A DNA stretch of 39,914 bases from Thermoplasmata archaeon. Its GTDB lineage: Archaea; Thermoplasmatota; Thermoplasmata; Lutacidiplasmatales; UBA184. Each line of letters begins with the position of its first letter. The first letter of the stretch is position 1. Of the stretch, positions 1,851 through 17,920 are shown piece after piece. The stretch covers positions 1 to 39,914 of the forward strand of contig JASHUS010000205.1 in NCBI GenBank assembly GCA_030039865.1, given 5' to 3'. The notes beneath the pieces are model-generated. The model did no database searches. It was not told where the DNA came from and worked only from the letters and a program-made list of their open reading frames with translations. The translations under genes and the position numbers were made by a program.

Positions 1851-2590
1851 GCCGGAGGCGCCTCCCTCAGCTTTCGCTCCGCGGCGCGGCCCCCCGCCAG
1901 GACCAGCGCCGGCGCCGCGATGACGAGCACCGGGAGGAGCAGGAGGATGTAGCGCATCCCCGGGATCTGCGCGATCAGGCCGATGAACGGGATGAGCACG
2001 ACGATGAGGAGGACGAGGTAGACGACGCCACCGGCGCCGATCGCGCCGCGGCCGAGGTGACCCGCCGACAGCAGGAGCCCCACGGCGATCCCGAGACCGC
2101 CGAGCCAGGCGCAGCCGAACCCGATCACCGCCGTGTAGCCACCGAACGGTTGGCCCGACTCGAGGCAGCTCAGGATGCTCGACGCCGGGCCCTTGACGCA
2201 GCTGGTCAGGGTGTCGGTGTGCCCGGCGAGGACCCCCGCCGCGAGGACGAGCAGGAGGAATCCGACCGACCCGATCAGGCAGAGCACCGTCGAGGCCCAG
2301 AGCTTCGAGTCGAACTTGCGCATCTTGGAGAACGCGCTGCGGTAGAAGTAGAGCGAGACCAGGTACAGGATCGCGCCGAGGATGATGAGCAGGCTCGACG
2401 TCAGGACCGAGTCCGCCGCGAGCGTGAAGAACCCGCTCGGGGAGTACTTGCTGATCTCGAGGATGAGCACCGGGATCAGCACCGCGAGCACGCCCGCGAT
2501 CAGGCCGAACCACGCGCCGGCGGCCAGCCGGCGCGCGCCTTTTTCGTCGCGTTCCCGCTCTTTCGCCCACGGGACCCGGGGTTCCGCCAT
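1847..2590 (-). CDS. Multi-pass membrane protein (DUF973-like archaeal membrane protein), unknown function
   Basis: 247 aa with 6-7 hydrophobic helices. Its stop overlaps the msrA start by 4 nt (ATGA), which implies co-translation. The DUF973 assignment is from memory of that family's architecture only. Confidence 0.6.
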
Positions 2591-2667
2591 CGCTCGCCGC
2601 CTCCGCGTCGCCCCCAGCCCGCGACCGGGTTATCTAACCTCGCCCCTCCGGTGAGCGTCCCGTCGGG

Positions 2668-3120
2668 TCAGGGGCGGACGACGATCTCGACGGTGCAGTG
2701 CGCCCAGGCTCGCGCGTTCCGCCACGGGTCCGCCGTGTAGACCTCGCGATAGTCGCCCACGGAGCGGATCTTCTTCTCGCGGCGCTGGGCGCGGAGCCAA
2801 TCGTAGACCCCGTGGTAGATCACCCGCGGCGAGACGGCCTCGGGATCGAACGTCACTCGGGCGACCCGCCCCGCCGCGAGCGAGCGCACCCGGATCCCGT
2901 CGCCCCCGCGCGCCTTCCCGAGGACCTGGATGGCGACCTCGAACGACGTCGGGTTCGGCTCCCGGAAGATCCAGGCACCGGTGCGGAGCCCCCGCGCCTT
3001 CGTCCACTTCTCGATCCGGGCGAAGTTCGAACGGATCTTCGCCTCGCTCCAGGTCCCCTTCCACGCGATGCTCGCGACCCGCCGCAAGGGTACCCGCCCG
3101 TATCCGAAGTCCACCGTCAT
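2668..3120 (-). CDS. GyrI-like / effector-binding-domain small protein
   Basis: C-terminal 150 aa of ORF 2668..4080, from MTVDFGYGRV (cat at 3118-3120). The size and a duplicated beta-alpha-beta-beta pattern (…WKGTWSE…, …YREVYTADPW…) resemble the GyrI-like fold. The upstream part of the long ORF overlaps moaA in another frame and was rejected. Confidence 0.5.
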   Translation of the reverse strand: MTVDFGYGRVPLRRVASIAWKGTWSEAKIRSNFARIEKWTKARGLRTGAWIFREPNPTSFEVAIQVLGKARGGDGIRVRSLAAGRVARVTFDPEAVSPRVIYHGVYDWLRAQRREKKIRSVGDYREVYTADPWRNARAWAHCTVEIVVRP

Positions 3121-3149
3121 AGTGCCTCGAACGCGGAAGGCGCCGAACC

Positions 3150-4151
3150 CTATTGAAGGCGCCGAAACGAAGGGTCCGCGGCGGCCGCCCGGGGCGCGAC
3201 CATCGGTAGCGGCACCGAGGGCGCGTTCCCGCGGGGGTAGTCCTTCACGTACGCCCCATAGTACGGCACGCGCGTCGAGATGACCTGACGGAACGCGTCG
3301 CGCAGCGCGGCATCGTCCAGACCGCGCGTGGGCACGAGGTCGTCGGACCGGTTGAGACAGCCTTTCAGCTCCCCGCGGTGGGTCACCCGGATCCGGTGAC
3401 AGTTCGAGCAGAACTCGGCGTTGTACACGGGGTCGACGAGCTCGACCTCGGCGTGCTGGAATCGGTAGACGCGCCGGTGGTGCATCTCGCGCACTAGGAC
3501 GTGGGAAGCGTGCGTCTCCAGCCAGTCGCGGACCGCGCGGATATCGACCCGGCGCTCTTCGTGGGCGACGAGCTCGGGCATGTACTCGATGAGCTGGAGC
3601 TTGAGGCCGTCCGTCGCGCCGACGAACTCGATCATCCGCGGGATGCTCTCGACCGTCGGACGGAAGACGACCATGTTGAGCTTCACCGGCTTCAGTCCGA
3701 CGCGCAGCGCCGCCCGGATCCCCCGCAGGACCGGGGCGAGGGCGCCGCCCCGGATCTGATGGAACGCCTCGGGGTCGACCGAGTCGACCGAGACGTTGAC
3801 CCGCTTCAGGCCGGCGTCGCGCAGCGACTCCGCGCGGCGTTCGAGCATCGAGCCGTTGGTCGTCAGGGAGACGTCGGCGATCTGCTCGACCGTCCGCTCG
3901 ACGATCCGTTCGAGGTCGTCCCGGACGAGCGGTTCGCCGCCCGTGAACTTCACCGATCGGATCCCGAACTCGCGGGCGACCCCGACGAGCCGCTCGACCT
4001 CGACCGGGCTGAGCTCCTCGTCGTGCGGCGCGCGCGGCCGCGCGACCGGGCCGAGCCCTTCGTCGTGGCAGTAGACGCACCCGAAGTTGCAGCGCTTGGT
4101 GACGCTGATGCGGATGTCGGTGACCGCCCGCCCGAACGCGTCGGAGAGCAT
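3150..4151 (-). CDS. moaA: GTP 3',8-cyclase MoaA (radical SAM, molybdenum cofactor biosynthesis)
   Basis: 333 aa. N-terminal CNFGCVYCH radical-SAM cluster motif, C-terminal CSNCHRIRVTHRGELKGC auxiliary cluster motif, and the GGEPL motif. Confidence 0.9.
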   Translation of the reverse strand: MLSDAFGRAVTDIRISVTKRCNFGCVYCHDEGLGPVARPRAPHDEELSPVEVERLVGVAREFGIRSVKFTGGEPLVRDDLERIVERTVEQIADVSLTTNGSMLERRAESLRDAGLKRVNVSVDSVDPEAFHQIRGGALAPVLRGIRAALRVGLKPVKLNMVVFRPTVESIPRMIEFVGATDGLKLQLIEYMPELVAHEERRVDIRAVRDWLETHASHVLVREMHHRRVYRFQHAEVELVDPVYNAEFCSNCHRIRVTHRGELKGCLNRSDDLVPTRGLDDAALRDAFRQVISTRVPYYGAYVKDYPRGNAPSVPLPMVAPRAAAADPSFRRLQ

Positions 4152-4217
4152 CGGACCACTAGGAGGCGGACGCCGCTTAACGGGGAGGGTCGGCCCTCCC
4201 CGTCGCCCCGCGCGTCC

Positions 4218-5177
4218 TCAGGCGCGCGCGGCCGGCGTGTCCGGGCTCTCCTCGAGCGGTACGTTGACCTCGAGCGTCTGGCGGCGGCGCTGGATCGCCA
4301 TCGCGACGTCCGAGCCGACCGGGAATTTCGAGAGCGACTCGATCAGCTCGCGGACCCGGTGGACCTCGAACGGCCCGACGCGCGACACGACATCGCCGGC
4401 CCGCAGCCCGGCCCGATGCGCGGGGGACCGGGGCACGACCTCCGCGACGAGCAGGCCCGCGCCCGGAACGAGTCCGTGCGAGCGCGCGAGCTCGGGTCCG
4501 AGCTCGGCGACCTGGACGCCGATCCACGGTCGCACGACGCGTCCGTGCCGCCGCAGTTCGTCCGCGATCCGCCGCACGGCTTGCGTGGGGATCGCGAAGC
4601 CGACCCCCTGCGCGAACGGGATCATCGCGGTGTTGATGCCGATCACCGATCCGGCGAGATCAAGGAGCGGCCCGCCGCTGTTGCCGGGGTTGATGGCGGC
4701 GTCGGTCTGCACGAGCCCCTCGAAGATGAAGTCCGAACCCGGGAGCGGACGGCCGAGGGCGCTGACGACCCCGGTCGAGACGGTCGGGCCCCCCGGCAGG
4801 CCGAGCGCGTGCCCGACCGCGAGGACGATCTGCCCGACCCGGAGCGCGTCCGAGTCGCCCAGGTGCGCCGCCGGGACGTCGATCGCGTCGACCTTGACGA
4901 GCGCGATGTCCGTCACCGCGTCGCCCCCGACGACCTCCCCGGGGAGTTCCCGCCCATCCGCCAAGTGGACGCGGAGAGCGGTCGCGCCCTCGACGACGTG
5001 CTCGTTCGTCAGCAGATAGCCGGTCGGGTCCCAGACGACGGCCGAGGCCTGCCCCGGCCGCGCGAAGGGGCCCATCCCGCGCTGTCGTCCGACCCGCAGG
5101 GTCTCGACGCTGGCGACGCTCGGGCCGATCGCTCCGACGGCGGCGACGATCCGGTCCTCGAGCTCGGTCAGGCCCAT
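4218..5177 (-). CDS. HtrA/DegP-family trypsin-like serine protease with one PDZ domain
   Basis: Catalytic triad contexts TNEHVV, DIALVKV and GNSGGPLL, with a C-terminal PDZ (GLLVAEVVPRSPAHRAGLRAGDVV). Start chosen at MGLTELED (cat 5175-5177), which is preceded by GGGGGTGA on the coding strand. The ORF could extend to 5222. No obvious signal peptide or TM helix. Confidence 0.85.
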   Translation of the reverse strand: MGLTELEDRIVAAVGAIGPSVASVETLRVGRQRGMGPFARPGQASAVVWDPTGYLLTNEHVVEGATALRVHLADGRELPGEVVGGDAVTDIALVKVDAIDVPAAHLGDSDALRVGQIVLAVGHALGLPGGPTVSTGVVSALGRPLPGSDFIFEGLVQTDAAINPGNSGGPLLDLAGSVIGINTAMIPFAQGVGFAIPTQAVRRIADELRRHGRVVRPWIGVQVAELGPELARSHGLVPGAGLLVAEVVPRSPAHRAGLRAGDVVSRVGPFEVHRVRELIESLSKFPVGSDVAMAIQRRRQTLEVNVPLEESPDTPAARA

Positions 5178-8859: not shown

Positions 8860-10605
8860 CTACCAGCCCACCGGCGCGCCCTGGTTCTCGTGATCGAGCC
8901 ATCGCTGGAGCGGGGCGAAGTACTCCAGCAGCGCCGCCGCGTCCATGCGGCGCTCGCCCGTCGCGGCCTCGAGCGCGTCGGGCCACTCCCGGCGGCTGCC
9001 GAGCTCGAGCATGGACCGCAGACGTTCGCCGGCGGCGCGCGAGCCATGGATCGTCGCGCGGTGGAGCGGCCCGGAAGAACCCGCTGCGCGCACGAGGGCG
9101 CGGTGGAACTGGAACTCGAGGATGTGCGCGAGGAAGTAGCGCATGTACGGGGTCCCCGAGGCGACGTGGAACTTCGCGCCCGGGTCGAAGTCCGCCTCGC
9201 TTCGGCCGGGCGGCGGGGCGATCCCCTGGCGCTCGGTGCGCATCTCCCACCAGGTCCGGTTGTACCGCTCGGGGCCCACGTCGCCCGAGAAGACCCGCCA
9301 GCGCCATTCGTCCACGACGAGCCCGAACGGCAGGAAGGCGAGCTTCGCGAGCGCGCGGCGGAGCAGGTAGGGGATGTCATCGGTCGGTCCCGACGTCGCG
9401 TCGAGGAGGCCGATCGCCGTGAGGTACTCCGGCGTGACCGAGAGCGCGATCGTGTCGCCGATCGCCTCGTGAAAGCCGTCGTGCGCGCTCTCGCGGAAGA
9501 GGAACGGCTGGCGCGCGTAGGCCCGCTGGTAGAAGTTGTGGCCGAGCTCGTGGTGGACGACGAAGAAGTCCTCCTCGCTGATCTCAAGGCACATCTTGAG
9601 ACGAAGGTCGTCGGCGTAGTCGATGTCCCAGGCGCTCGCGTGGCAGACGACGTCGCGGCCGGGAGGGCGCACGAACATCGAGCGCTCCCAGAACGTCGCG
9701 GGCAGGGGCTCGAACCCGAGCGAGAGAAAGAATCGCTCCCCGTAGCGCACGAGCTCTTGCGGTGTGGTCTTCCGCTCGCGCAGCACCGCGCCGAGGTCCC
9801 AGCTCGGCCCTTCGGTGTCGGGCGCGAGGAGCGGGTAGATCCCGGCCCACGATTGGGCCCACATGTTTCCGAGCAAAAACGCGGGGATCGGTCCGGTGTC
9901 CGGAACGAGCTCGGGACCGTACCGGGCGCCAAGCCGCCGCCGGACATAAGCGTGGAGCGATCGGTAGAGAGGACGCACCTGGTCCCAGAGGCGCCCCGCC
10001 TCGCGGGCGAAGTCGTCCGCCGGCATGTCGTACTTCGCGCGCCAGAGGGCCCCGAGGTCCGGATAGTCGAGCTCGCGGGCGCCTCGATTGGCGAGCTCGA
10101 CGTACCGGGTGAAGTCGGAGCGCATCGGGCGGGCGATCGCGTGCCAGCCGCTCCAGGCCTCCTCGAGCGACGCCGGGTCCCGGCTCGTCTCCAGGATCCG
10201 CGAGAGTCCCTGCACATCGAGCGGCGCCGGGGATCCCCGAGGTTGGTAGCGCCCCCGGGCGTACAGGGCCTGCATCGCGCTCGACAGGCGGCTCAGCTCC
10301 TCGGCCTCGCCCGCGCCGGACGGCGCGATGAGCGTGAACGATCGGCGCAGCAGCTCGAGCTTGCGCGCGTCGACCGGACTCCGAGTTCGCCCTCGCAGGG
10401 CCGACGAACGCTTCGCGAGGTCCGTCGCCGCGGTCATCAGCCGGGCGGCCGCGAGCGAGGTGAGCTCCTCCGTGTCGGGTGTGATGAACGTGCAGTAGAT
10501 CCAGTCCGCGCGGTTCGCCTGGATCGACAGTTCGAGCAGGCTGCGCTCGGCCTGGTCGAGGAACTCGGCCGGATCCGCGGGTGGGACGTCGAGGGGTTCG
10601 CTCAA
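8860..10605 (-). CDS. Peptidase family M2 (angiotensin-converting-enzyme-like peptidyl-dipeptidase)
   Basis: 581 aa. Zinc motif [15 protein letters not shown] followed by [12 protein letters not shown], the ACE-type third-ligand Glu context. N-terminal [13 protein letters not shown] resembles ACE W.Y.TNIT. The start is TTG at 10605. No signal peptide. Confidence 0.85.
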
Positions 10606-12849: not shown

Positions 12850-13428
12850 TTACGCCGGCGCCGCGGCGAGGGGCACGCGCACCGTACGAAGCGCGGTCCC
12901 CCACGAGATGACCTGGTCGAGCACCGCCGTCAGTGACCTTTCCTTCAACGGGTCCGGCCGGAACGTGCGGAAGTTCTCGAAGTCGGTGAAGAGCGAGAAC
13001 GATACCTGGGCCCGGACGGTCGCGACCATCAGCTCGGCCATGACGAGCCGGAGGTTCTCGACCGCCCGGACGCCGCCCGCGCTCCCGTAGCTTACGAAGC
13101 CGGCGACCTTGTTGTTCCACTCCGCGTAGAGGAAGTCGATCGCGTTCTTGAGCGCCCCCGACGTACCGTGGTTGTACTCGGGCGTCACGAAGACGAAGGC
13201 GTCGAGCGACGCGATCTTCTGCGCCCAGGCCTTGGTGTGGTCCTGCGAGTACTTCCCCATCGACGGGAGCGCCGGCTCGTCGAGGTGCGGCAGCCGGTAG
13301 TCGAGCAGGTCAACGAGCTCGAACTCCGCGTCGGTGCGCTTCCGCGCGAGATCGTAGACCCAATTGGCCACCGAGGCACCCACGCGGCCTGGGCGCGTGC
13401 TGCCGATGATGATCCCGATACGGATCAT
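12850..13428 (-). CDS. NAD(P)H-dependent FMN reductase family flavoprotein
   Basis: MIRIGIIIGSTRPGRVG (GSxRxxS-type loop), TPEYNHGTSGALKNAIDFL. ATG at 13428 (cat 13426-13428). The track ORF begins at an upstream GTG at 13458. Confidence 0.85.
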   Translation of the reverse strand: MIRIGIIIGSTRPGRVGASVANWVYDLARKRTDAEFELVDLLDYRLPHLDEPALPSMGKYSQDHTKAWAQKIASLDAFVFVTPEYNHGTSGALKNAIDFLYAEWNNKVAGFVSYGSAGGVRAVENLRLVMAELMVATVRAQVSFSLFTDFENFRTFRPDPLKERSLTAVLDQVISWGTALRTVRVPLAAAPA

Positions 13429-13952
13429 ACACGGCCCCCCGTCGGCCGTCGGACGCACAGTTCCGAATTCGCTCCTCTCCCCCTCAGCTCGAGATCCGCC
13501 GATGCGAGCGCTATCATTTCGAAATCAGGTATCTGACGGTTAGCCTATAAACTCTCACCGAAACGCGGGTAAGCTGGTCACGGGCGGGTCGACGGCCGGG
13601 GCCGGCGATGGTGCCTGTCGTCTCTCAGTCGCGGTCGGTATGGGGTCCCCCCGGACGCGGCGCGATATCCCGCGAGAGCCTCGTCACTCAAAGCCCCGCC
13701 TTCCGCTGGATCTCCTGGAACCGGGGATCGAGCCGAACGTACTCGAGCCGGGGGATCGAGCCGCGATACTTTGCGAGCGCATCGGCGTCGTGCCACTCAA
13801 CATCCCCGATCATGTCGGCGGGTATGAATCCACTCCCGGGTCAGTCGACTGGCCCGCGTAACGATCGCGTCAGATCCCCCGGCGTCCCCGCCCCGCGGGG
13901 ACGAAATTCCTCTGGGGGCAGCCGGGCCGATTCCGAATGGGAACGGAATACT

Positions 13953-15887
13953 CTAGTTGGATATGCCGTAGGATTTGCGGACCTTATGAAGCAGGTCCGC
14001 GAATCGAGGATCCGCCGCCATGTTTCGGTACGAGGGGTCTCGAAGTTCGCCGGCCCCCGCGACCTTGCGCTCAATCATGTCTTCCACGAAAGGAAAGAAA
14101 CGCTCCCGATCACCGATGAGCGCCATCGCATACGATACTTGGCCAATCTCACCCAGCGTCGCCGGCGAGTCACGGGCGGCGGCGAGGGCCAGAGTCTCAT
14201 CGATCAGTCGCGAAGCTTCCTCCTTGTTCCCGAGGTGCGCTTCGATCCGGGCCTGGACGCTCTTGTACCTCATCTCGTCCGGCTCTAGTCTTCGGATGGT
14301 TCGCAGATCCCGGTAGGCATCCTCTCGCCGTCCCTTCGTGGCGTTTAGCACGGCGCGGGCGAAGTAGGCCCAGGAGAGGGCGGGCTCCATTTCGATCAAC
14401 CGAGTCGTGGCCGCGAGACATTCGTCGTAGCGGTCCGCGAAGTAGTACGAGATCAGGAGAAACCACGTTCGAGACGATGGAAGCGGGTCCAACTCGTAGG
14501 CCCTCTTCGCCTCGTCGAGGGCTTCGTCCAGCCGACCCAGTCCCCGCAAGACATACCCGTACCGTTCATGGGCGTCGGCGTGACTCGGGTTCAGCGCGAG
14601 CGCCTTCTTGAGTTCGACTTCAGCGCCCGGGTAGTTGTCCCGCATCATCACGTTCGCCATGGCGACATGAGCCTCGGGCAATGTACCGTCGAGTTCGATG
14701 GCCCGCCGAGCGAGCGACTCGGCCCGTCCGTACCCCTCGTCCGGGTCGAGGTATCCTGCCGCTGCCAGATCGCGGTAACAATCGGCCAGCCCGGCAGTCG
14801 CCCGCGCCGACTCCGGATCGAGCTTCATCGCGTCCTCGTAGAGGACCTTGGCCTGTTCGGTGGCTTCCCGGCCGATCTTCGCCCACAAGGCGAGAGCTCG
14901 AAGGCAGAGGGCGTGAACTTCGGGACTTTCCGCCCGGCCCCCGACTCGAGGGGAGGGGAGCTTCAACGCTTCCGCAATCTTGCGCGCGATGTCGGACTGG
15001 GTCTCGAAGACGTCGTCCAGGCTCCCATCGTAGCTCTGTGACCAGAGATGGCTATCTCGCTCGGCGTCGATGAGTTGAACAGTGATTCGCACGCGGTTAC
15101 CGGACTTCCGAACGCTACCTTCGAGGAGTTTTCCGGCCTTCAGTTCGCGTCCGATCTCGGGCAGGCTCTTCGAAGACTGCTTGTACCTCATCGCGGAGGT
15201 CCGCGAGATCACGCTCAGACCGCCGATCCCGGACACCGCCGAAATGATCTCGTCCGTCATCCCGTCGGCGAAGTACTCGTCGCTGGCGGCGGGGCTGAAG
15301 TTGGCGAGGGGAAGAATCGCGATTCGATTCTGATCGACGGCGTACGGTACCGCGCCACCCCTTTCCGTCCACGGCATGACCACCTTGAACAATTCCGGGG
15401 GCGTGCTCACGTTCTTGAGTGGCTTCGGACCGAGGCTCGTCATGGGCAGTTCGAATTTGTTCTGGACCTGGTCGTAGACCTGCCGAGAGATACAGACCCC
15501 GCCGGCTTCTGCGAGCGGCTCGATCCGTGAGGCCACATTCACCGCGTCGCCCGAGATGTCGTCCGGGGTTCCCACCACGTCTCCGAGGTGCACCCCGACC
15601 CGGAGGAGCACCTGCCGCTCGGACGGCCGAGAGAAGTTCGCCTCGCGGCTCGTCCGCTGAATCTCGTAGGCGCACCGCACGGCCTCGAGCGCGTTCGGGA
15701 ACTCCACCAGGAAGCCGTCTCCCATCGTCTTGACTTCCCTCCCCCCGTGGCGCTCGAAAATCGGTCGAAGCATCGCGCGCTGTTCTCCAAGCAACTCGAG
15801 CGAGAGCGCTTCGTCGCGCTGACCGAGCGCCGTGAAGCCGACGATGTCGGTGAACATGATGGCGGAGAGACGACGGACCGACGCCAC
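13953..15887 (-). CDS. Class III adenylate/guanylate cyclase fused to a TolB-N-like domain and TPR repeats
   Basis: 644 aa. Cyclase homology domain with FTDIVGFT, KTMGDGFL and GDAVNVASRIE (metal Asp residues, Lys, Asn-Arg all present). This is followed by IAILPLANFS…YFADGMTDEIIS…LIDAERDSHLW, then repeated TPR-like helices. GTG start at 15887. The gene is visibly A/T-richer than its neighbours. Confidence 0.85.
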   Translation of the reverse strand: MASVRRLSAIMFTDIVGFTALGQRDEALSLELLGEQRAMLRPIFERHGGREVKTMGDGFLVEFPNALEAVRCAYEIQRTSREANFSRPSERQVLLRVGVHLGDVVGTPDDISGDAVNVASRIEPLAEAGGVCISRQVYDQVQNKFELPMTSLGPKPLKNVSTPPELFKVVMPWTERGGAVPYAVDQNRIAILPLANFSPAASDEYFADGMTDEIISAVSGIGGLSVISRTSAMRYKQSSKSLPEIGRELKAGKLLEGSVRKSGNRVRITVQLIDAERDSHLWSQSYDGSLDDVFETQSDIARKIAEALKLPSPRVGGRAESPEVHALCLRALALWAKIGREATEQAKVLYEDAMKLDPESARATAGLADCYRDLAAAGYLDPDEGYGRAESLARRAIELDGTLPEAHVAMANVMMRDNYPGAEVELKKALALNPSHADAHERYGYVLRGLGRLDEALDEAKRAYELDPLPSSRTWFLLISYYFADRYDECLAATTRLIEMEPALSWAYFARAVLNATKGRREDAYRDLRTIRRLEPDEMRYKSVQARIEAHLGNKEEASRLIDETLALAAARDSPATLGEIGQVSYAMALIGDRERFFPFVEDMIERKVAGAGELRDPSYRNMAADPRFADLLHKVRKSYGISN

Positions 15888-15906
15888 GACCCGAAACCTG
15901 CTCCCG

Positions 15907-15916
15907 TTAGATTAAG
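15907..15916 (-). promoter_or_regulatory. TATA-like box upstream of the cyclase gene
   Basis: CTTAATCTAA (minus strand) lies 20-29 nt upstream of the GTG at 15887. Confidence 0.35.
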
Positions 15917-15998
15917 CCCTACACCCCGGAGCCGGCGGAGTCCCACGTCGGAAAGTCGGACCGCTCGGGCTCGTCTTGCCCCAGGCGCCGGTCCGTCG

Positions 15999-16012
15999 AG
16001 TGGACACGGGGG
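15999..16012. repeat. Exact 14-nt copy of the tRNA-Ala 3' end (att-like)
   Basis: AGTGGACACGGGGG at 15999..16012 equals 17150..17163 (two trailer nt plus the discriminator, acceptor 3' strand and T-stem 3' strand of tRNA-Ala, plus-strand reading). Confidence 0.7.
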
Positions 16013-16021
16013 CGTCCGCAT

Positions 16022-16040
16022 CCCCCGGGGGAGTGGACGC
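16022..16040. repeat. Second, imperfect copy of the tRNA-Ala 3' end/trailer junction
   Basis: CCCCCGGGGGAGTGGACGC versus CCCCCGGGGAAGTGGACAC at 17140..17158 (17/19). Together with 16013-16021 it forms the hairpin GCGTCC…GGACGC. Confidence 0.5.
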
Positions 16041-16073
16041 AGAGCCGACGCCCTTCCTGGTTTTGCGAGGTTA

Positions 16074-16262
16074 TCAGACCGATTTGCTCCCGGCCCAGAT
16101 CGTCGGCGCTTCGAGATAGCCTTCGAACACTTCGGTGAAGTTCCGGTTCAACTCGGCCCGGGTCTTCCCCACGGCGATACATCCGGGGAACTCCCGGCAA
16201 TACGCCCAGTACGATCCGCCCTCGCGAACGACGACCTCGGTGAACGACGTAGGATCGCTCAT
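16074..16262 (-). CDS. HicB-like (UPF0150) antitoxin-fold small protein without a DNA-binding extension
   Basis: MSDPTSFTEVVVREGGSYWAYCREFPGCIAVGKTRAELNRNFTEVFEGYLE matches the HicB N-terminal pattern (…GGY.A..P.lPGC...G.T.eEa…i.e.i..yLe). ATG at 16262 within ORF 16074..16322. Confidence 0.6.
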   Translation of the reverse strand: MSDPTSFTEVVVREGGSYWAYCREFPGCIAVGKTRAELNRNFTEVFEGYLEAPTIWAGSKSV

Positions 16263-16522
16263 CCCGGCTCGACCTTCTTCGACTTCGCCTTTGCGAGAGC
16301 ACCGTCGATCCACTTCTCCCACCGCTCGTCCTCGAAAACGGCGAGGCGGGTCATCCCGGCGTTGGAGAAATCAATCCCCTCTCCCTTCGGAGGGAGGCTT
16401 CGGACAAGCAGGCCGAACCGGAAGTCGGGCTGCAGGGCCCAAAGCTCGCCGAGCTTCCGGAGGGTGAGGTCAATCCGCTTCGGGTCTGTCACTCGCCAGG
16501 CCTCTCGGGCGTAAGCGGCCAT
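16259..16522 (-). CDS. Hypothetical 87-aa protein, weakly YihD/DUF1040-like
   Basis: ATG ORF. Its stop overlaps the HicB-like start by 4 nt (ATGA). LGELWALQPDFRFGLLVRSL recalls E. coli YihD (…AWQKEPDFNLLQFLQKL). It does not resemble HicA. Confidence 0.45.
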   Translation of the reverse strand: MAAYAREAWRVTDPKRIDLTLRKLGELWALQPDFRFGLLVRSLPPKGEGIDFSNAGMTRLAVFEDERWEKWIDGALAKAKSKKVEPG

Positions 16523-16554
16523 TTAAGTTGGTGGGCGCGGAGAAATTCGCCGTA

Positions 16555-17058
16555 CTAATGCGGAATCGACTGCCTGACCACCGCGACCGCTTCGCCTGAG
16601 ATAACGAACGATCTCGACCAAGACGGATGCTTCGGAGGATGATAGACCAAAACGTACCGTTGAGATACTTCGGATGCCTCGGTAGTCGAAGGCCCGGATA
16701 GAACCGAGACATTGGCCCAAGAAATCCGCAGATAGTGGTCTCGGAATAGATATCGACGGGCCAGAATGAGGCCGCCCGGGTCCGATCCTACGTGATGGGG
16801 AATGAGGTCAACAGCCGGATAGATCTCTAGACAGAACACCCAACCTACCACAGCGAGCAAGACGGTGAACGGAAGGATCGCGAACAGCCCTGGTCGCGCT
16901 GCGACCGCTAATCCGGCGCCGACAATCGCAAGATCCAACGCCCCAACCAGAATCCAGATCATTTTCCTCGTCTTCGGATAGTCGGCGTTGAGGGCTAAGG
17001 GGCCCGGCGCCTGACTCGCGACGGACTCGGTATCGGACGCGAAACTTGGCCGAGCCAT
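16555..17058 (-). CDS. Two-TM membrane protein with a roughly 100-aa C-terminal soluble domain (architecture reminiscent of bPH/DUF304 proteins)
   Basis: ATG at 17058 (MARPSFASD…) inside ORF 16555..17124. TM helices MIWILVGALDLAIVGAGLAVAA and LFAILPFTVLLAVVGWVFCLEIY. A/T-richer codon usage. Confidence 0.55.
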   Translation of the reverse strand: MARPSFASDTESVASQAPGPLALNADYPKTRKMIWILVGALDLAIVGAGLAVAARPGLFAILPFTVLLAVVGWVFCLEIYPAVDLIPHHVGSDPGGLILARRYLFRDHYLRISWANVSVLSGPSTTEASEVSQRYVLVYHPPKHPSWSRSFVISGEAVAVVRQSIPH

Positions 17059-17151
17059 GGTTAGATTCCGAGACGACCACGAGAGTGATTTCGGCCCCCG
17101 CCTCGACCAGAGCGAGAGCACCAAGTAATGGATTCGAACCCCCCGGGGAAG

Positions 17152-17223
17152 TGGACACGGGGGGATTTGAACCCCCGACCTCTGCTTTGCGAAAGCAGCG
17201 ATCTTCCGCTGATCTACGTGCCC
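17152..17223 (-). tRNA. tRNA-Ala (anticodon CGC), no intron, CCA not encoded
   Basis: Minus-strand read: GGGCACGTAGATCAGCGGAAGATCGCTGCTTTCGCAAAGCAGAGGTCGGGGGTTCAAATCCCCCCGTGTCCA. Acceptor GGGCACG/CGTGTCC with the G3:U70 Ala identity pair, anticodon loop TTCGCAA, T arm GGGGG-TTCAAAT-CCCCC. Confidence 0.95.
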
Positions 17224-17250
17224 TCGCGCGGTGGGGAGGAAGCTTCGGCC

Positions 17251-17256
17251 TTAAGC
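17251..17256 (-). promoter_or_regulatory. Possible TATA-like box for tRNA-Ala
   Basis: GCTTAA (minus strand) lies 28-33 nt upstream of the tRNA 5' end (17223). Confidence 0.3.
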
Positions 17257-17299
17257 GCTTCGAGGAGAGAATCCGTCGGGTGTCGTGTCCGGGGCCGGT

Positions 17300-17920
17300 C
17301 TAGGCCGCGGCGAGCCGCTCGCTGGCGGTCGCCGTTTGCGAGATCGTCGATCGGGGGGTGCTCGACGTCGCTCGACCGCTGCCGCCGGAGCCGCCGCCGG
17401 ACAGGCCCCCGGTCGGAGGGGGACGGTTCGTCGACGACGCGCGGCTCGACGGACGCGGCCGCGCGATCAGGCGCTGGTCCGCCGCGTCGTAGCGGAACAG
17501 CTCCGCGTAGCGGCCCCAGTTCACGATATTCTGCACGAGGGCGTCGGCGGGCGCCGTCGTGAGCGAGACGATCTGGTGGAGCTGCTCGTCCGAGAGCGTG
17601 TGGTCCGGCGCGCCGTCGAGGGCGCGCATCAGCGTCTTGAACAGTGTCGTGCGCAGCAGCTGGTCGCGGACGACCTCCTTGCGGTCCCGGATCGACGCGG
17701 CGACGAACCGCTTGCCGAGGTCGGTGAACGTCGCGCGGCCATCGTGGACGGTGACGAGCTTCAGCACCTCGGCGAACTCGAGCGCGGGGAAGATCTCGTC
17801 GATCTCGAGATCGAGGTCGTCGGCGAGCAGCGCGACGTCCTCGGAACCTTTGTGGGAGTTCAGGAGCACGAGGAGCCCGATCATCTCGGTCGGGCTCGCC
17901 TTTGGGTACGCGGTCGGCAC
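17300..17920 (-). CDS. Stand-alone AAA-associated C-terminal domain protein of NitT/TauT-type ABC systems, with a Gly/Ser/Pro-rich tail
   Basis: ASPTEMIGLLVLLNSHKGSEDVALLADDLDLEIDEIFPALEFAEVLKLV…FKTLMRAL resembles the domain normally fused to the C-terminus of NitT/TauT ATPases. GTG start at 17920. Lies 35 nt downstream of the ATPase gene. Confidence 0.7.
   Translation of the reverse strand: MPTAYPKASPTEMIGLLVLLNSHKGSEDVALLADDLDLEIDEIFPALEFAEVLKLVTVHDGRATFTDLGKRFVAASIRDRKEVVRDQLLRTTLFKTLMRALDGAPDHTLSDEQLHQIVSLTTAPADALVQNIVNWGRYAELFRYDAADQRLIARPRPSSRASSTNRPPPTGGLSGGGSGGSGRATSSTPRSTISQTATASERLAAA

Follow-up and report, generated by a model that had tools for sequence, protein, structure and literature searches.

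A probable soluble class III adenylyl cyclase with a TolB-like and TPR tail, and its expanded family in soil Thermoplasmata

Here we describe a gene for a cyclase/TolB-N-like/TPR protein in a stretch of 39,914 nucleotides (the window, meaning this whole stretch) that makes up positions 1 to 39,914 of contig JASHUS010000205.1, from the Thermoplasmata archaeon assembly GCA_030039865.1. The gene probably encodes a soluble class III adenylyl cyclase with a sensor tail, and it would belong to an expansion of such proteins in soil Thermoplasmata that has been exchanged between archaeal phyla. The window's own genome, called G000 here, is a 1.54-Mb assembly that is 69% complete and has a guanine-plus-cytosine (GC) content of 69.8%; it contains no 16S rRNA gene. 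Please note that the taxon labels used throughout are the submitters' record titles and protein names, mostly for soil and peat metagenome-assembled genomes (MAGs). The gene and its domains are laid out as follows:

13953..15887, minus strand: cyclase/TolB-N-like/TPR gene (open reading frame [ORF] of 644 aa, complete, GTG start)
15378..15875, minus strand: class III cyclase homology domain, residues ~5-170 (PF00211, 3mr7 sequence match, Foldseek)
14958..15341, minus strand: TolB-N-terminal-like alpha/beta domain, residues ~183-310 (domain model, Foldseek, conservation in 68 homologues)
13968..14930, minus strand: TPR solenoid, residues ~320-640 (TPR Pfam families, ~20 helices in the model)

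The gene at these coordinates had been proposed, from the letters and their translations alone, to encode cyclase, TolB-N-like, and TPR modules, and the ORF, Pfam, and Foldseek together now support all three. In Pfam, residues 9-147 match Guanylate_cyc (E 8e-17) and ~366-570 match TPR families, the N-terminus lines up with the N-termini of homologues in the alignment, and the full-length AlphaFold model has a mean predicted local distance difference test (pLDDT) score of 89.6. No membrane helix is predicted in the protein. Because no stretch of 19 residues is hydrophobic enough for one (maximum mean hydropathy 1.23), the protein is predicted to be soluble.

The case for a working enzyme is made by residues and fold together. 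PF00211 recognizes the window protein at 61.9 bits against a curated cut-off of 21.9 (65.4 bits in the genome search). The sequence-only reading had listed the catalytic motifs FTDIVGFT, MGDGF, KTMGDG, and VNVASRIE as kept, and all seven catalytic residues are indeed in place: FTDIVGFT starts at residue 12 and holds the metal-binding D14, KTMGDGF starts at 53 and holds K53 and D57, PDDISGDAVNVASRIE starts at 108 and contains D110, N117, and R121, and R96 completes the set. Two alignments, of 15 and of 56 homologues, show no variation at D14, D57, N117, and R121; at K53, R96, and D110 the 15 likewise do not vary, and conservation across the 56 is at least 90%. By sequence, the best solved relative is 3mr7, a cyclase domain from Ruegeria pomeroyi (E 2e-31), with Ma1120 and Rv1900c next. 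The cyclase region of the model (pLDDT 82-97) gives Foldseek target template-modelling (TM) scores of 0.90 with 3mr7, 0.92 with Rv1900c (1ybu), and 0.92 with Ma1120 (5d0h), at a root-mean-square deviation (rmsd) of 1.7-2.2 Å. Conserved residues and fold match thus back the earlier view that the cyclase is, apparently, catalytically competent.

The specificity positions can be read in the same way. D110 is the second specificity residue and stands seven before N117, and we take D365 of Rv1625c to stand likewise seven residues before its N372. A Lys/Asp pair is the adenylyl signature of class III, whereas guanylyl cyclases use Glu/Cys-type pairs. The alignment that the earlier reading had proposed for telling the two apart returns Lys/Asp, and the K53/D110 pair predicts adenosine triphosphate (ATP) as the substrate of the window cyclase.

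The middle module (~183-310) is the best conserved part of the protein after the cyclase domain, as judged from the 68 homologues, and carries the motifs IAILPLANFS ... YFADG ... EGSVRK ... QLID ... LW. No Pfam family matches it, even at E 10. Foldseek with the whole model gave only cyclase and TPR matches; the middle domain was modelled separately with the 68 homologues, and this model (pLDDT 92.4) finds the TolB N-domain (4pwz, 4r40, 3iax, and 1crz) at a TMq of 0.62-0.67 and E 1e-6 to 7e-6, with further matches to PelC, GNA1162, LpoB, FlgT, and the CadC periplasmic domain. The label "TolB-N-like", first given without any search, is therefore correct at the level of the fold, and JGI names for homologues read "TolB-like protein/class 3 adenylate cyclase/..." There are also weak NCBIfam matches to HilA/EilA and CadC across residues 183-574. 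From the CadC and HilA/CadC matches, the TolB-like domain and the helical repeats would seem to work jointly as one sensor unit.

The three modules evolve at different rates. Identity to the orthologues of three congeners (G001, G003, and G010) is 78-84% in the cyclase domain and 78-88% in the TolB-like domain, versus 54-63% in the TPR; for the paralogues within G000 the corresponding values are 50-57%, 49-55%, and 23-28%. The TPR solenoid is the fastest-evolving part of the window protein and, on these comparisons, appears to be its diversifying part, as would be expected of an input module. Variation on the domain layout also occurs elsewhere in the family, where proteins P0052 and P0101 (814-860 aa) carry two tandem cyclase domains before the TolB-like/TPR tail.

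The family to which the gene belongs is large. G000 itself has 13 PF00211 matches, most of them in frames of ~650 aa (~11-13 cyclase-domain matches); when the whole protein was used for the search, matches turned up in 20 of the 24 genomes of its genus, up to 17 in one genome. Across the window's family (soil Thermoplasmata, Lutacidiplasmatales-like), a cyclase domain is present in 96 of 144 genomes, with up to 20 matches each. None was found in the six genomes of two sister families, and only 5 of 295 sampled genomes of Thermoplasmatota outside the window's family have a cyclase match. The expectation that class III cyclases are uncommon in archaea is borne out for this latter group; class III cyclases are rare across Thermoplasmatota, yet a hallmark of the window's family. 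Many of the G000 paralogues lie on contigs of 2-7 kb or at contig ends (C53, C54, C15, C143, C115, and C136). The family apparently breaks the G000 assembly, and the copy number in G000 is then a lower bound. In G001, a region of ~25 kb (C27:289458-315216; L019 and L020) holds ~8 cyclase-family genes or fragments, among them some longer frames (~1000-1100 aa) and a cyclase domain encoded on the other strand.

The closest relatives of the window protein are archaeal. Orthologues in congeners are 74% (G001), 66% (G003), 65% (G010), and 60% (G006) identical to it, with congeners as a whole at 60-76%. The conserved neighbours in the same genomes differ to a similar degree, with an ABC ATPase at 74-82%, a permease at 59-67%, and an AAA-associated protein at 64-71% identity (59-82% overall). 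Such core-gene-like divergence of the orthologues is what descent within the genus predicts, and it argues against recent import. In a collection of 5.8 billion proteins the best matches are 55-77% identical, those named for an organism being "Thermoplasmata archaeon", and names such as "Thaumarchaeota" and "Nitrososphaerales archaeon" appear from ~49% downwards. A scan of the genome collection gives the same succession, with Thermoplasmata at up to 68%, then Nitrososphaerales, Bathyarchaeia, and Conexivisphaerales at 40-49%, Bacteroidota and a few other bacterial MAGs at 35-43%, and Alphaproteobacteria at 32-37%. Overall, the window protein has only 37-43% identity to the G000 paralogues. In the cyclase domain alone, its identity to proteins of Nitrososphaerota and Bathyarchaeota is 66-73%, compared with 50-57% for those paralogues.

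The main tree was inferred by maximum likelihood from 91 rows (quick search, LG+C20 with PMSF, unrooted, query-biased sample), consisting of the 80 best loci, less three with frameshifted matches, together with rows from the window's own genus and own genome. An alphaproteobacterial clade (100*) stands apart from an archaea-dominated clade of 72 rows, within which sequences of Chitinophagaceae, Fidelibacterota, and a few MAGs labelled "Thermotogae/Acetothermia" are nested. The window protein falls among nine Thermoplasmata rows that form a clade (99*), and the sister of this clade is a sequence from Nitrososphaerales (99*). The phylogeny proposed for the cyclase thus leads to congeners and then to soil Nitrososphaerales and Bathyarchaeia as the closest homologues, not to bacteria. 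Two lineages can be told apart in the nine-row clade, one with the window gene, G001a, and L050, and the other with L051, G001b, L052, and the G000 copy on C54, and on this topology they would indicate an old duplication; the G001 array described above holds both. The protein at L052 (G006:C51, lineage B) is a mosaic by comparison with the window protein, 84% identical in the TolB-like domain but only 58% in the cyclase domain, and this mismatch hints at domain shuffling or recombination between paralogues.

The remaining G000 paralogues are spread over four or more further clades, several of them beside Nitrososphaerota sequences. A single clade for all Thermoplasmata is rejected (difference in log-likelihood 329.6, p-AU 3.4e-6 in the approximately unbiased [AU] test, on a 44-row subset with LG+G4). 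The mixing of phyla in the tree is not a binning artefact, because the Nitrososphaerota and Bathyarchaeota loci have a distinct GC content (0.46-0.62 vs 0.61-0.74 in Thermoplasmata). On the tree and the AU test, the family has been exchanged repeatedly among soil archaeal phyla.

A cyclase needs a reader for its product, and candidates are common in the relatives. A domain that binds cyclic nucleotide monophosphates (cNMPs) is present in 98 of 120 genomes of the family, one to five per genome, mostly in stand-alone proteins of ~145-200 aa. Among genomes scored in both searches, 74 have both cyclase and cNMP-binding domain, 2 the cyclase only, 21 the cNMP-binding domain only, and 18 neither, which gives an odds ratio of 32, uncorrected for relatedness; the two cyclase-only genomes are both incomplete (69% and 78%). 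In three relatives the two genes are neighbours. In G106 (C5, L043), a 143-aa cNMP-binding gene at 1563-1994 lies directly upstream of a 652-aa cyclase at 2085-4043 on the same strand; G158 (C60, L044) has the same layout, with its cNMP-binding gene at 736-1185; and G129 (C45, L045) has a divergent pair at 2215-2817 and 2855-4834. The stand-alone proteins at these loci are 143-161 aa long and carry the canonical FGE...PRTA phosphate-binding cassette. We regard these neighbours, from their sequences and arrangement, as candidate archaeal cyclic adenosine monophosphate (cAMP) receptor/cyclase operons.

How such a protein might operate can be sketched from class III enzymology. Two N-terminal cyclase domains would pair head-to-tail to form two active sites, in which D14 and D57 would coordinate a pair of divalent metal ions, adenine selection would fall to K53 and D110, and N117 and R121 would stabilize the transition state, with cAMP as the product. 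The TolB-N-like domain and TPR would act as a sensor or partner-binding module that controls the productive pairing of the catalytic domains. The dozen or so paralogues, which differ mainly in the TPR, would fit a battery of cyclases tuned to different inputs, and in the relatives the small stand-alone cNMP-binding proteins (~150 aa) would be the likely readers of the signal. The present copy would belong to a subclade that has been passed down within the genus, diverging about as much as core genes do, and would sit in a fast-turnover region beside tRNA-Ala.

That region contains the following further features:

15907..15915, minus strand: A/T-rich TATA-like element TTAATCTAA, given on the gene strand (read from the sequence, 20-28 nt upstream of the GTG)
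15999..16012, plus strand: distal copy of the 14-nt tRNA-Ala 3'-end repeat AGTGGACACGGGGG (exact repeat; cassette edge)
17151..17223, minus strand: tRNA-Ala(CGC) (ARAGORN, Rfam; synteny breakpoint in five congeners)
13688..13840, minus strand: relic of the 3' end of a family member, ~50 codons plus stop (blastx, hidden Markov model [HMM])

The element TTAATCTAA is a possible promoter, and its position would suit a leaderless archaeal mRNA of the cyclase gene. On one side the gene is bordered by 494 bp (13459-13952) that hold no intact gene, and on the other by the repeat-bounded tRNA-Ala cassette. Exact copies of AGTGGACACGGGGG occur only at 15999-16012 and 17150-17163, so that the small cassette is 16013-17149 and the cyclase gene is outside the direct repeats. 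A second, nested cassette enclosing the cyclase was considered and dropped, because no third copy of AGTGGACACGGGGG could be found to the left of the gene, allowing up to 2-3 mismatches. No integrase or other mobility domain was found among the ten ORFs scanned between 8860 and 17920, and the tRNA is the sole Rfam match in 13300-17400. A second, partial repeat of 22 nt (86% identical; 16017-16038 and 17135-17156) lies just inside the cassette edge and may suggest more than one integration at tRNA-Ala.

To the right of tRNA-Ala, an AAA-associated gene, an ABC ATPase, an ABC permease, and tRNA-Gln are kept in G001, G003, G007, G010, and G011, and several genes past tRNA-Gln are also kept in most of these five congeners. 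The genes of the left flank (cyclase, FMN reductase, cyclophilin, RNase H, and M2 peptidase) are absent within ~9.5 kb in the same five genomes. The M2 (angiotensin-converting-enzyme-like) peptidase of this non-syntenic flank is full length, at 8860-10605 on the minus strand (Pfam E 4.5e-200). In G001 the orthologous cyclases are in the array of ~8 paralogues over 25 kb, and the FMN reductase is in yet another context; no empty site could be reconstructed from these arrangements.

The stretch downstream of the gene had been taken for a non-coding gap. Its position between gap and cassette stands as described, but the gap is not simply non-coding: by blastx, the relic at 13688-13840 aligns to the last 20-26 residues of cyclase-family members. 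When an HMM built from the C-terminal 60 residues of family members was run against the 24,103 six-frame ORFs of G000, the relic scored E 0.0024 and 18.2 bits, and the only other matches were the C-termini of paralogues and one contig-end fragment. Pfam gives no match to the relic. A different family member therefore once ended here, which speaks of paralogue replacement or decay at the locus.

As for composition, the gene is A/T-richer than its neighbours, as had been noticed at the outset. Its GC of 0.633, against a gene mean of 0.696, is at the 5.7th percentile of 892 putative G000 genes, and its GC at third codon positions (GC3), 0.78 vs 0.88, at the 8th percentile; the low-GC stretch spans ~13.5-17.2 kb of the window. 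The orthologues in G001 (two copies), G003, G010, and G006 have a GC of 0.605-0.666, each 1-4 points below its own surroundings, and the G000 paralogues span a GC3 of 0.75-0.94. Because orthologues and paralogues show such deficits, the low GC is a trait of the subfamily, found also in some other copies, and not the mark of a recent arrival. It is possibly explained as well by low expression as by incomplete amelioration.

Low composition and a tRNA-side position had led the sequence-only reading to propose horizontal acquisition. The low GC and the break in synteny at tRNA-Ala hold; a lone recent import from bacteria does not, given the 11-13 cyclase-domain matches in G000, the hundreds in the family, and the archaeal relatives. 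The closest homologues are widespread in the lineage and similar in composition, which is largely the finding that had been named as counting against acquisition, although inheritance is not cleanly vertical and the orthologues are non-syntenic. A recent single acquisition from bacteria on a low-GC island at tRNA-Ala is thus highly improbable, even though the gene adjoins an integrase-less tRNA-Ala cassette, synteny breaks at the tRNA in five congeners of which none has a cyclase there, the architecture is common to rhizobia, and few genomes of the phylum outside the family have a class III cyclase. The best bacterial matches, at 31-41%, are far below the archaeal ones (congeners 60-76%, other soil archaea 43-49%). 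The orthologues of four congeners share the GC deficit relative to their own surroundings, the gene is not enclosed by direct repeats, no integrase is seen, and the relic downstream puts the family at this locus earlier. A better candidate is the entry of the subfamily into the genus from a soil archaeon of lower GC (Nitrososphaerales-like, ~54% GC) with the GC not yet ameliorated, which we consider possible but hardly the likeliest course. Its attractions are the Nitrososphaerales sister (locus GC 0.542), the closeness of the cyclase domain to Nitrososphaerota and Bathyarchaeota proteins as compared with the gene's own paralogues, the low GC of the orthologues relative to their hosts, and the rejected monophyly of Thermoplasmata. 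However, the tree is unrooted and the sister a single sequence, so the direction of transfer is not fixed; paralogues with equally low GC3 (C150_884, C54_1590, and C53) are in a Thermoplasmata-only clade; paralogues beside Nitrososphaerales sisters (C182 and C136) have a normal GC3; and weak expression could instead give low GC3.

Two further alternatives concern function. The protein could be a pseudo-enzyme or scaffold without catalytic activity, or else a guanylyl cyclase, and the fact that no cAMP-making enzyme from archaea has been characterized (PMC10249747) leaves room for this. We think it very unlikely, with seven catalytic positions intact and conserved across 56 homologues, the adenylyl Lys/Asp pair in place of a Glu/Cys-type one, and a modelled fold within 1.7-2.6 Å rmsd of active adenylyl cyclases. 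The other alternative makes the family immune-type sensors, whose variable TPR would recognize invader molecules and whose alarm, cAMP or another cNMP, would be read by the small cNMP-binding proteins, loosely like Pycsar or STAND/Avs. The family is multi-copy, patchy, and transferred between phyla, its TPR diverges fastest, and this copy stands in a variable region by an integration hot spot with a small HicB/UPF0150-like gene cassette; there is also a weak PADLOC match to PycC (E 3e-6), and a cNMP-binding protein from a relative resembles the part of Pycsar effectors that binds cNMPs. Even so, this is a very doubtful account. The PycC match, at 24.5 bits, is generic cyclase-domain homology, K53/D110 predicts a purine (ATP) and not a pyrimidine, the relatives' cNMP-binding proteins have no TIR, membrane, or other killing domain, and this copy has no linked defence genes. 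Rhizobia have the same architecture in abundance, and there cAMP regulates symbiosis and physiology. A broader version, in which the paralogues form a repertoire of immunity-like or environment-sensing receptors, each TPR variant recognizing a molecule of its own and raising a cAMP alarm that cNMP-binding proteins read, is likewise improbable, with paralogues that occupy variable regions and have passed between archaeal phyla; if true, it would be the first defined archaeal cAMP signalling system and a new use of class III cyclases.

Several points weigh against our preferred reading of a soluble adenylyl cyclase with a sensor tail, in a family exchanged between archaeal phyla. No cNMP-binding domain was found in the window, as had been reported from the letters alone, nor in the 69%-complete G000 assembly to which the search was extended (Pfam, and tblastn with five relatives' proteins); its absence may reflect the 31% of the genome that the assembly lacks. 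The main tree came from a quick search with no root inferred, and the AU test was run on a reduced row set under LG+G4 for a group defined after the tree had been seen. Within 10 kb of the orthologous cyclases in G001, G003, G010, and G006, not one of the window's neighbours is found, and without such synteny vertical descent in the genus is not demonstrated.

The wider setting makes the family of interest. According to a 2023 review, cAMP has been detected in archaea, and no archaeal protein that makes, degrades, or binds it has been characterized (PMC10249747). The family also occurs in Nitrososphaerales, which have cultured members, and extra class III cyclase copies were reported in Ca. 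Nitrosocosmicus in 2025 (PMC13577086). Lutacidiplasmatales have been described with ~69% GC and 2.1 Mb (PMC9287336), and the main texts of that paper and of the Gagatemarchaeaceae papers make no mention of cyclases or cAMP. The family and its co-occurring small cNMP-binding proteins offer a directly testable pair for archaeal cAMP signalling. The value of the locus is mostly corrective, in that a low-GC gene by a tRNA need not be a fresh foreign import. Taken singly, the locus is ordinary; it is the whole family that deserves experimental work.

Finally, the window protein can be set beside known systems. Pycsar PycC shows distant cyclase homology, with a PADLOC score too low for membership, and shares with the relatives of the window gene a separate cNMP-binding partner. 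Unlike Pycsar, the window cyclase has a purine-type Lys/Asp pair and no adjacent effector, and the relatives' partners are the binding domain alone; with so weak a match and no killing effector linked, we do not assign the window gene as the PycC of a Pycsar system. The mycobacterial proteins Rv0386, Rv1358, and Rv2488c (cyclase/NB-ARC ATPase/TPR/LuxR) also combine an N-terminal cyclase with a TPR tail in lineage-specific, soluble expansions, but in the window protein Pfam and NCBIfam find no NB-ARC/AAA ATPase or helix-turn-helix domain, and a TolB-like domain stands there instead. The CadC periplasmic sensor (3ly8) and the HilA/CadC regulators have a TolB-N-like subdomain followed by a helical, TPR-like bundle, as in the window protein. 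The likeness is at the fold level only, as the CadC output is a DNA-binding domain and its sensor is periplasmic, whereas the window protein has no membrane segment.

The solved class III domains, namely 3mr7, Ma1120 (Mycobacterium avium), Rv1900c/LipJ, and Rv1264 (M. tuberculosis), match at target TM-scores of 0.85-0.92 and 29-36% identity and have the same metal, substrate, and transition-state residues as the window cyclase. These enzymes carry an alpha/beta hydrolase, a pH sensor, or nothing, and none has a TolB-like/TPR tail; we know of no ligand for any cyclase/TolB-like/TPR protein. The closest known kind are the rhizobial cyclase/TolB-like/TPR proteins, such as WP_064994087.1 (Mesorhizobium sp. 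WSM1497, pWSM1497) and WP_037380981.1 (Sinorhizobium americanum CCGM7 plasmid A), which have the same domain order and the same catalytic residues as the window protein. The association with bacterial signalling cyclases that was drawn at the start holds in this sense: a tblastn search against plasmids gave 233 records with 31-38% identity over 80% or more of the query, and the rhizobial proteins align over 80-99% of the length at E 1e-70 to 1e-89. They are shorter (~580 aa), end without the last ~100 residues of the archaeal TPR tail, and form the separate clade of the tree (100*); like the archaeal family they are multi-copy, at up to 17 places per replicon.

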